Shown here one piece after another: positions 1,966-4,335 of a DNA stretch of 5,386 bases. This stretch comes from Shigella phage SGF3. Within the stretch, counting starts at the first letter, position 1. Each line of letters starts with the position of its first letter. The stretch lies in the sequence record MN266305, one strand, 5' to 3'. The notes under the pieces are model-generated. The model was not told the origin of the DNA. It did not search any database and saw nothing but the letters and a program-made list of their open reading frames with translations. The translations under genes were made by a program, and so were the position numbers.

Positions 1966-3507
1966 ATGGTTCGCTCTTATTACCCTTCTGAATGTCACGC
2001 TGATTATTTTGACTTTGAGCGCATTGAGGCTCTTAAGCCCGCTGTTGAGGCTTGTGGCATTTCTACCCTTTCTCAATCTCCGATGCTTGCCTTTTATAAG
2101 CAGATGGAAAACCGCATCAAGCTCTTGGAAGAGATTCTGTCATTTCGCATGCAGGGCGTTGAGTTCGATAATGGTGATATGTATGTCGACGGTCATAAGG
2201 CTGCTTCTGATGTTCGTGATGAGTTTGTATCTGTTACTGAAAAGTTAATGGATGAATTGGCACAATGTTACAACGTGCTCCCCCAACTTGATATTAATAA
2301 CACTATAGACCACCGCCCCGAAGGGGACGAAAAATGGTTTTTAGAGAACGATAAGACGGTTACGCAGTTTTGCCGTAAGCTGGCTGCTGAACGTCCTCTT
2401 AAGGATATTCGAGATGAGTATAATTACCCTAAAAAGAAAGGTATTAAGGATGAGTGTTCAAGATTGTTGGAGGCCTCCACTATGAAATCGCGTAGAGGCT
2501 TTACTATTCAACGTTTGATGAATGCAATGCGTCAGGCTCATGCTGATGGCTGGTTTATCGTTTTTGACACTCTTACGCTGGCTGATGACCGCTTAGAGGC
2601 GTTTTATGATAACCACAATGCTTTGCGTGACTATTTTCGTGATATTGGTCGTATGGTTCTTGCTGCCGAGGGTCGTAAGGCTAATGAATCACATGCCGAC
2701 TGCTATCAGTATTTTTGTGTGCCTGAGTATGGTTCAGCTAATGGCCGTCTTCATTTCCATGCGGTGCATTTTATGCGGACACTTCCTACAGGTAGCGTTG
2801 ACCCTAATTTTGGTCGTCGGGTACGCAATCGCCGCCAGTTAAATAGCTTGCAAAATACGTGGCCTTATGGTTACAGTATGCCTATCGCAGTTCGCTATAC
2901 GCAGGACGCTTTTTCACGTTCTGGATGGTTGTGGCCTGTTGATGCTAAAGGTGAGCCGCTTAAAGCTACCAGTTACATGGCTGTTGGCTTCTATGTGGCT
3001 AAATACGTTAACAAAAAGTCAGATATGGACCTTGCCGCTAAAGGTCTAGGAGCTAAAGAATGGAACAACTCACTAAAAACCAAGCTGTCGTTACTTCCCA
3101 AGAAATTATTCAGAATCCGAATGAGCCGCAACTTCGGGATGAAAATGCTCACAATGACCAACCTATCAATGGAATGCTTAATCCAGCTTACCAAGCTGGG
3201 TTACGACGCGACACCGTTCAATCAGATATTGAAGCAGAACGCAAAAAGAGAGATGAAATCGAGGCTGGCAAAAGTTACTGTAGCCGACGTTTTGGCGGCG
3301 CAACCTGTGACGACAAATCTGCTCAAATTTATGCGCGCTTCGATAAAAATGATTGGCGTGTCCAACCTGCAGAGTTTTATCGCTTCCATGACGCAGAAGT
3401 TAACACTTTCGGATATTTCTGATGAGTCGAAAAATTATCTTGATAAAGCAGGAATTACTACTGCTTGTTTACGAATTAAATCGAAGTGGACTGCTGGCGG
3501 AAAATGA
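1966..3507 (+). CDS. A: Replication initiation protein A (513 aa), HUH rolling-circle endonuclease
   Basis: ATG at 1966 after the GGAGG-containing hairpin. Protein [25 protein letters not shown]... matches phiX174 A. HUH motif in [10 protein letters not shown]; catalytic tyrosine pair in [10 protein letters not shown] (codons 343 and 347, nt 2992-2994 and 3004-3006). The ORF-track start at 1927 is an upstream extension. Confidence 0.95.
2284..2313 (+). other. Origin of (+)-strand rolling-circle replication (30-nt ori; gene A protein nick site between G2290 and A2291)
   Basis: caacttgatattaataacactatagaccac is identical to the phiX174 30-nt origin as I recall it, at the same offset (318 nt) from the A start codon. 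Confidence 0.85.
2482..3507 (+). CDS. A*: A* protein (in-frame internal initiation within gene A; 341 aa)
   Basis: In-frame ATG at 2482 ([16 protein letters not shown]...), 516 nt downstream of the A start, the same offset as phiX174 A*. Upstream GGAGG at 2469-2473. Confidence 0.7.
2848..2880 (+). promoter_or_regulatory. Possible PB promoter region upstream of gene B (inside gene A): -35-like TTGCAA (2848-2853), -10-like TACAGT (2872-2877)
   Basis: phiX174 is known to have a promoter for B inside A. The hexamers here are weak matches and my positional recall is imprecise. Confidence 0.3.
3060..3422 (+). CDS. B: Internal scaffolding protein B (120 aa), encoded entirely within gene A in a different frame
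   Basis: ATG at 3060 with AGGAG at 3048-3052. Protein [15 protein letters not shown]...[12 protein letters not shown]; the C-terminal half matches phiX174 B, the N-terminal third is more diverged. Stop TGA at 3420-3422. Confidence 0.93.
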
Positions 3508-3592
3508 GAAAATTCGACCTATCCTTGCGCAGCTCGAGAAGCTCTTACTTTGCGACCTTTCGCCATCAACTAACGATTCTGTCAAAAACTGA
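3422..3592 (+). CDS. K: Protein K (56 aa), overlapping the end of A/B and the start of C
   Basis: ATG at 3422-3424 overlaps the B stop (TGATG). Translates [56 protein letters not shown], matching phiX174 K. Below the ORF-track size cut-off. Confidence 0.85.
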
Positions 3593-3764
3593 TGCGTTGG
3601 ATGAGGAGAAGTGGCTCAATATGCTTGGCACGTTCGTTAAGGACTGGTTTAGATATGAGTCACATTTTGTTCACGGTAGAGATTCTCTTGTTGACATTTT
3701 AAAAGAGCGTGGATTACTATCTGAATCCGATGTAGTTCAACCATTAATAGGTAAAAAATCATGA
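3504..3764 (+). CDS. C: Protein C (86 aa), DNA maturation / switch from RF replication to ssDNA synthesis
   Basis: ATG at 3504 overlaps the A stop (ATGA, stop 3505-3507). Protein [86 protein letters not shown]. 261 nt, as in phiX174. Confidence 0.92.
3691..3720 (+). promoter_or_regulatory. Candidate PD promoter inside gene C: -35 TTGACA (3691-3696), 18-bp spacer, -10 TACTAT (3715-3720)
   Basis: Perfect -35 hexamer and a 4/6 -10. The predicted start near 3727-3729 corresponds to the phiX174 D-promoter start as I recall it (about nt 358 in reference numbering). Confidence 0.6.
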
Positions 3765-4219
3765 GTCAAGTTACTGAACAATCTGTACGTTTCCAAACCG
3801 CACTGGCTTCTATCAAGCTGATTCAGGCCTCTGCTGTTTTGGATTTAACCGAAGATGATTTCGATTTTCTGACGAGCAACAAAGTTTGGATTGCTACTGA
3901 CCGCTCTCGCGCTCGTCGCTGTGTAGAGGCTTGCGTTTATGGTACGCTGGACTTTGTGGGATACCCTCGCTTTCCTGCTCCTGTTGAGTTTATTGCTGCC
4001 GTCATTGCTTATTATGTTCATCCCGTCAACATTCAAACGGCCTGTCTCATCATGGAAGGCGCTGAGTTTACGGAAAACATTATTAATGGCGTCGAGCGTC
4101 CGGTTAAGGCCGCTGAGCTGTTCGCGTTTACCCTGCGTGTACGCGCAGGAAACACTGACGTTCTTACTGACGCAGAAGAGAACGTCCGCCAGAAATTACG
4201 CGCAGAAGGAGTGATGTAA
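3761..4219 (+). CDS. D: External scaffolding protein D (152 aa)
   Basis: ATG at 3761 overlaps the C stop (ATGA). Protein [34 protein letters not shown]...RQKLRAEGVM appears identical to phiX174 D (from memory). Confidence 0.96.
   Translation: MSQVTEQSVRFQTALASIKLIQASAVLDLTEDDFDFLTSNKVWIATDRSRARRCVEACVYGTLDFVGYPRFPAPVEFIAAVIAYYVHPVNIQTACLIMEGAEFTENIINGVERPVKAAELFAFTLRVRAGNTDVLTDAEENVRQKLRAEGVM
3939..4214 (+). CDS. E: Lysis protein E (91 aa), MraY inhibitor, encoded within gene D in the +1 frame
   Basis: ATG at 3939. N-terminal transmembrane segment MVRWTLWDTLAFLLLLSLLLPSLLIMFIPSTFKRPVSSWKAL is conserved with phiX174 E; the C-terminal tail differs (…KRTSARNYAQKE). 276 nt, as in phiX174. Confidence 0.92.
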   Translation: MVRWTLWDTLAFLLLLSLLLPSLLIMFIPSTFKRPVSSWKALSLRKTLLMASSVRLRPLSCSRLPCVYAQETLTFLLTQKRTSARNYAQKE

Positions 4220-4335
4220 TGTCTAAAGGTAAAAAACGTTCTGGCGCTCGCCCCGGTCGTCCGCAGCCGTTGCGAGGCACTAAAGGCAAGCGCAAAGGTG
4301 CTCGCCTTTGGTATGTAGGCGGTCAACAATTTTAA
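4219..4335 (+). CDS. J: DNA-binding / packaging protein J (38 aa, highly basic)
   Basis: ATG at 4219-4221 overlaps the D stop (TAATG), with AGGAG at 4206-4210. Translates MSKGKKRSGARPGRPQPLRGTKGKRKGARLWYVGGQQF*, matching phiX174 J. Confidence 0.9.
   Translation: MSKGKKRSGARPGRPQPLRGTKGKRKGARLWYVGGQQF

Follow-up and report, generated by a model that had tools for sequence, protein, structure and literature searches.

The window, i.e., the whole stretch of 5,386 nucleotides analysed here, represents a complete circular genome of a phiX174-type microvirus that has been opened inside gene F. Its alignment to phiX174 (NC_001422) is gap-free and contains 243 substitutions (95.5% identity), and window positions are obtained by adding 3371 to the phiX174 position, modulo 5386. 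Being colinear with phiX174, ∼5386 nt long and more than 90% identical to it in nucleotide sequence, the genome belongs to the phiX174 clade (genus Sinsheimervirus). Ten reading frames have been inspected, those of A, B, K, C, D, E, J, F, G, and H, and all are intact; A* lies in the A frame. The region of interest consists of gene D, gene E nested within it, and the adjoining gene J:

3761..4219, + strand: gene D, external scaffolding protein, ATG to TAA, 152 aa (open reading frame and Pfam PF02925 gpD)
3926-3929, + strand: GAGG, ribosome-binding site of E, the same in phiX174
3926..4065, + strand: run of 140 nt identical to phiX174, covering the GAGG, the E start and E codons 1-42 (= D codons 56-101)
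3939..4214, + strand: gene E, lysis protein, 91 aa plus TGA (open reading frame, PF04517, PDB 8G02 chain B)
3966..4034, + strand: transmembrane helix of E, about residues 10-32 including Pro21, sequence LAFLLLLSLLLPSLLIMFIPSTF (hydropathy and conservation)
4065..4211, + strand: cytoplasmic tail of E, codons 43-91 (= D codons 102-151), with 11 D-silent differences from phiX174
4192, + strand: site of K85R, A>G, silent in D (Q144, CAA>CAG) and replacing K85 by R in E
4219..4335, + strand: gene J, DNA-binding core protein, 38 aa (open reading frame; PF04726 Microvir_J, 60.9 bits)

The D protein matches Pfam PF02925 with 326 bits (cut-off 25) and is thus a member of this family; its ATG shares bases with the stop codon of C (ATGA), and its TAA with the J start (TAATG). 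E lies entirely inside D in the +1 frame (offset 178 = 3n+1), such that the third position of a D codon is the second position of an E codon. Family membership of E follows from 77.8 bits to PF04517 Microvir_lysis (cut-off 25, residues 35-74), and the protein also matches chain B of PDB 8G02, "Lysis protein E" (E-value 2.8e-48), as well as 8G01, both entries holding E chains of solved MraY-E-SlyD complexes. The Kyte-Doolittle hydropathy peaks at 2.79 in a 19-residue window from residue 10 (residues 10-28), and a single N-terminal transmembrane helix with Pro21, as is typical of lysis protein E, is present. J bounds the D/E unit at its 3′ end and differs from its phiX174 counterpart by six silent and no replacement changes. 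D and E agree with their phiX174 counterparts in order, length, reading frame, and start/stop overlaps, the two genes occupying 390-848 and 568-843 in that phage.

Gene overlap was first described for the D/E pair, whose asymmetric evolution has entered the textbooks. E is regarded as a de novo frame that arose by overprinting of the ancestral D (PMC8227390); in this article, the discovery of the overlap is credited to Barrell et al. 1976, and studies of its evolution to Miyata and Yasunaga 1978 and Fiddes and Godson 1979. The phiX174 E protein inhibits MraY and depends on the host protein SlyD (PMC12506998, PMC3324380), which binds the soluble domain of E (PMC10688784); the YES complex has been summarised in PMC12506998. 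Judged from the 100% identity of residues 1-42, the E protein of the window would likewise act as a MraY inhibitor with SlyD dependence. By analogy with this literature, MraY binding and inhibition may be assigned to its helix and a SlyD- or stability-related role to its tail.

The closest relative is the Salmonella phage PJNS001 (PQ479934), which has been obtained from wastewater by selection on rfaL-deficient Salmonella (PMC12328618). It differs from the window at 33 of 5386 positions, chiefly silent third positions, and carries D F123L and E K85, unlike the window. The A and H proteins of the window are identical to those on record for Shigella phage SGF3. Even closer are two circular assemblies in the Logan collection (ERR14098658_836, in the following L020, and SRR13447425_61861), each 5386 nt long and 2-3 positions off the window, which stem from two independent public runs and both encode E including K85R, L020 additionally with E P58L. 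Given that the PJNS001 differences are mostly silent and at third positions, and that circles nearly identical to the window have been recovered from two unrelated runs, a synthetic or designed genome has been ruled out, and the window is taken as a natural phage and no construct. Two thirds of the PJNS001 differences (22 of 33) are located in gene A (window 1966-3507); over window 2200-3300 the identity is 98.4% to MED1 vs 97.9% to PJNS001, which suggests that gene A is a recombinant mosaic. The last base of the window (5386, F codon 339) is A, whereas PJNS001, phiX174, and both Logan circles have G; the resulting F D339N either is private to this genome or stems from an error at the edge of the record. 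Regarding the records themselves, E, B, K, and A* are unannotated in PQ479934 (PJNS001) and PP501405, hence database searches that rely on annotation would overlook the E genes of such relatives. SP14 has been classed under Caudoviricetes, and its 5513-nt assembly appears terminally redundant.

The D protein had been described, in an earlier note on this DNA, as apparently identical to that of phiX174, and indeed 152 of 152 residues match, i.e., the two are 100% the same. At the DNA level 24 of the 459 positions differ, and the codon-by-codon comparison has found every one of these differences to be synonymous in D: 21 affect third positions and three are first-position changes of TTG to CTG (Leu), corresponding to pN = 0 and pS = 0.22. 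When 24 changes with the same transition/transversion mix are placed at random, a mean of 7.6 and a maximum of 16 in 20,000 trials are D-synonymous. The distribution of the 24 differences along the gene is uneven, with 13 located 5′ of E, none in E codons 1-42 and 11 in E codons 43-91 (4066, 4108, 4117, 4118, 4133, 4180, 4186, 4189, 4192, 4201, and 4204; D codons 102-148). These 11 sites give rise to nine replacements in E (N43S, K57R, N60S, K81R, C83S, V84A, K85R, V88A, and R89Q); the remaining two are silent in E, one at P65 and the other, a second change in codon 60, when it is taken singly. The frame geometry forces this coupling: out of 196 single changes that would be silent in D within the overlap, 192 (98%) alter E, 19 of them by creating a stop codon, and E replacements are thus a necessary outcome of D-silent drift. 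The divergence that the note placed in the C-terminal half of E has thus been confirmed, all nine replacements lying within residues 43-89 and the quoted sequence strings being correct, and so has the conservation of the transmembrane domain, as residues 1-42 are identical to phiX174. Classified codon by codon in both frames, the differences include neither an amino-acid change in D nor a change in the transmembrane segment of E, the two outcomes that would have contradicted it. An asymmetric constraint on the overlapping genes, with D under strong purification, is supported both in the phiX174 pair and in deeper comparisons.

One part of the overlap, the stretch over E codons 1-42, is frozen. 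The proportion of synonymous D differences vs phiX174 amounts to 0.32 over D1-59, drops to 0.00 over E1-42 (= D60-101), and returns to 0.31 over E43-91; the probability that all 24 D-silent changes miss D60-101 is 3e-4 given the D synonymous sites and 1e-3 when the overlap is considered by itself, and the empty segment is therefore more than chance. D-synonymous divergence over E1-42 is also 2.5-5 times slower in comparisons with G4-like and alpha3-like phages. For G4, a D pS of 0.29 over E1-42 contrasts with 0.76 upstream and 0.81/0.65 downstream, and for NC35 a value of 0.10 with 0.56; the low pS of this segment persists vs G4, WA6, ID8, phiK, and NC35. Within the clade, the fraction of possible silent transitions that are used in 12 colinear genomes is 0.37 in D1-59, 0.10 in E1-42, and 0.23 in E43-91, with a significant deficit of E1-42 vs D1-59 (Fisher P = 0.004). 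At the protein level, residues 10-29 are invariant except for residue 19 among seven Bullavirinae E proteins from three genera, with Pro21 kept, and D residues 56-125 are near-invariant across the same seven phages. The few changes tolerated by the clade in E1-42 (R3H, V36A, and K40R) all fall outside the helix.

The 140 nt from 3926 to 4065 form the fourth-longest stretch identical to phiX174 genome-wide, and one may ask whether a recent recombination with phiX174-like DNA, or an RNA or ssDNA structure, has produced this identity rather than constraint on E. Mosaicism is indeed common to microvirus genomes, as illustrated by gene A with its concentration of PJNS001 differences and its closer match to MED1 over 2200-3300, and the three other longest identical runs equal or exceed this one in length. 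The trough in synonymous divergence, however, appears in every comparison including those with other genera, and merely 5 of 126 sites vary in the clade; with a trough at all depths and such low variation, a single recent transfer is insufficient. Excess RNA structure in the 140-nt run has been looked for and none was found, as the native sequence folds no better than shuffled ones (z = +1.47, with 188 of 200 shuffles folding at least as well), and the tolerated changes spare precisely the helix. Recent recombination has accordingly been rejected on the presence of the trough across genera, and RNA structure on a stretch less structured than its shuffles; taken together, we regard this explanation as exceedingly improbable, and constraint on E remains the preferred reading of the frozen stretch. 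The last change before the 140-nt run, 3925 T>A (D V55, GTT>GTA, silent), directly abuts the 5′ end of the E GAGG and might, in principle, influence the translation of E.

The tail of E behaves differently. In order to describe the kind of changes accepted there, the E replacements resulting from the actual D-silent differences have been compared by Grantham distance with all E replacements accessible through D-silent changes over E43-91, and the identical statistic has been determined for phantom +1 frames of regions without an overlapping gene. For the window vs phiX174, a mean Grantham distance of 41 has been obtained where 87 (sd 14.5) is expected (P = 0.0002), and stratification by the exact mutation type yields 41 vs 81 (P = 0.0009); at the clade level, the observed/expected ratio is 0.66 (P = 0.007), all of these values resting on n = 11-14 events that are partly linked by phylogeny. 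The phantom frames of D1-59, J, F, G, and non-overlapping A show ratios of 0.89-1.07 that are not significant in the pair or in the clade, and with H included the controls of the window-phiX174 pair range over 0.82-1.01. The H phantom frame, the one control that deviates, is itself mildly conservative (ratio 0.82-0.85, P = 0.02 in the window-phiX pair and 0.0002 in the clade), which leaves room for a composition effect on the Grantham statistic. The +1 frame of H (916-1902) contains an open frame of 203-205 codons at 1058-1669 on the + strand, while the +2 frame holds ∼40 stops; the internal frame is unbroken in all but one of the 12 clade genomes, the exception being S13, and its conservative bias is probably an effect of the biased composition of H.

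These data bear on the notion that residues 43-91 are wholly neutral and merely record the D-silent mutations in a passive manner. Several observations are in line with it: the silent rate of D in the tail (0.31) is indistinguishable at the pair level from that of non-overlapping D (0.32), E proteins of seven Bullavirinae range from 75 to 105 aa in length and become unalignable between genera beyond about residue 66, and the lytic activity has been placed in the membrane-spanning region (Buckley and Hayashi 1986, as cited in PMC8227390; PMC4825663). Against it stands the finding that the accepted changes have about half the Grantham distance expected (P = 0.0002-0.0009), with pair controls at 0.82-1.01. 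The radical options open in the tail vs phiX174, namely L>S at six sites, L>P at three, Y>C, C>Y, and E>G, have all been left unused, and premature E stops are absent from all 12 clade genomes but occur in 14% of random draws. Moreover, SlyD binding by the soluble domain of E has been published (PMC10688784). Full neutrality of the tail is therefore considered unlikely. A reduced number of silent changes relative to non-overlapping D is not significant in the clade (12 of 52 vs 21 of 57 transitions, 0.23 vs 0.37, P = 0.15), and with the silent rate not lowered, the case for tail constraint rests on the kind of change and not on its number.

The results on the tail suggest that it is weakly constrained, i.e., tolerant but not fully dispensable. 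The earlier description of the E C-terminus as dispensable thus stands insofar as replacements are tolerated, but it goes too far in view of the significantly conservative character of the accepted changes and the published SlyD binding. One may postulate, tentatively and at slightly less than even odds, that purifying selection maintains the physicochemical character of the tail, with its basic charge and the Leu, Pro, Cys, and Tyr residues that it has kept; E35-91 comprises 10 basic residues in the window and 11 in phiX174. Docking to, or stabilisation by, SlyD would be a plausible reason for such a selection. If it were confirmed, the natural D-silent polymorphism would amount to a free mutational scan of the E tail, and K85R as well as P58L of the sister genome L020 would become candidate variants of lysis timing. 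The latter results from a C>T transition at the equivalent of window 4111, which is silent at D codon 117; P58 is a proline invariant in seven of seven aligned Bullavirinae E proteins, and P58L belongs to a radical type that is otherwise absent. L44, K46, T47, M50, L56, L59, and S62 are further invariant positions of the tail.

Adaptive change in the tail, by positive selection at residues 81-89 for lysis timing or chaperone use in Salmonella- or Shigella-type hosts, could be proposed from the six differences that crowd into 27 nt (4178-4204, the top 0.45% of windows genome-wide), from the rarity of K85R and from the closest relatives, which are found among Salmonella and Shigella phage records. 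Genome-wide, however, this cluster ranks level with three others of 27 nt, one of them in non-overlapping D, and E81-89 has been rejected as a special hot spot on this basis. Most of the tail alleles also occur in coliphages isolated in screens on E. coli C, and all changes are conservative, which indicates purifying rather than diversifying selection. We therefore hold positive selection to be very unlikely and retain weak purifying constraint as the favoured account of the tail.

Eight of the nine E alleles are in fact the common states among wild phiX-like isolates (WA4, NC1, NC7, NC41, NC56, ID34, MED1, and PJNS001), and the minority states are carried by lab phiX174, S13, and WA10. On the sequences compared, it is lab phiX174 whose E is an atypical set of alleles relative to wild phages. 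WA4, NC1, NC7, NC41, ID34, and others, which reportedly come from the collection of Rokyta et al. in 2006, share with MED1 the residues S43, R57, S60 (most of them), R81, S or F at 83, A84, A88, and Q89 at an unchanged or nearly unchanged D, and R85 occurs in none. Serine is present at residue 43 in five of five outgroup E proteins, and S43 is therefore ancestral and N43 of phiX174 derived; polarisation by outgroups is clear for this residue only and ambiguous for 57, 60, and 81-89, the tail being poorly alignable between genera. R89Q corresponds to G833A (= window 4204), which has been reported as a polymorphism between lab phiX174 stocks that is replacing in E and silent in D, at a position well removed from the transmembrane region, the essential part of E (PMC4825663). 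K85R (A4192G) is the only E change missing from the 12 other phiX-clade genomes. A search of 50,697 phage records has returned no identical E, the best match reaching 98.9% and lacking K85R, and the exact E sequence of the window has no entry in the protein collection, in which E is often unannotated.

We consequently interpret the region, with a probability of about 0.9, as the D/E overlapping pair of a natural microvirus of the phiX174 clade, governed by an asymmetric constraint that is dominated by D and supplemented by a weak filter on the E tail. The substitution pattern, its statistics, the persistence across genera, and the conservative bias have been demonstrated directly in the analysis. 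D, the older frame according to the literature, is subject to very strong purifying selection, and only D-silent changes survive in it, nearly all of them at D third positions. E is a passenger frame read one base later, so that almost each of these mutations replaces an E residue. Over the ribosome-binding site, the N-terminus, and the transmembrane helix of E, both frames veto change, leaving the DNA frozen. The cytoplasmic tail would impose a weak filter only: D-silent changes build up there at a rate near the silent background, and those surviving are mild (K>R, N>S, V>A, C>S, and R>Q) and preserve the basic, Leu- and Pro-containing character of the tail.

All features of asymmetric overprinting are found here, i.e., silent change in the older frame, replacement in the nested frame, and a deficit at the essential part of the nested protein. 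The asymmetry of D and E as described is correct and already well known, accounts of it going back to 1976-79, and the statistical evidence for a weak constraint on the E tail is the only mildly new aspect. Such a constraint fits the MraY-E-SlyD structure of 2023, and the test applied to the tail could steer the design of E variants for bacterial ghosts or for work on MraY inhibitors.

A comparable situation has been observed in the A/B overlap (window 3075-3437; phiX174 5075-51), in which 18 nucleotide differences translate into 13 amino-acid changes in B and are mostly silent in A, with a pN of 0.049 in gene B close to its pS of 0.053. In both pairs the older frame is silent and the nested frame is replaced, B being offset by 2 from A and E by 1 from D; the internal boundary is sharper in D/E, with its frozen E1-42 vs the tolerant E43-91. 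Since A/B displays a signature like that of D/E, we regard the latter as a genome-wide property of overprinted genes and not as specific to D/E. The longest stretch identical to phiX174 (232 nt, window 3361-3592) comprises the end of A/B, all of K (3422-3592), and the start of C, and thus the doubly or triply coded A/K/C region. In gene K, 0 of 171 nt differ vs ∼8 predicted at 4.5% divergence (P = 4e-4), and 5 of the 171 sites vary in the clade.
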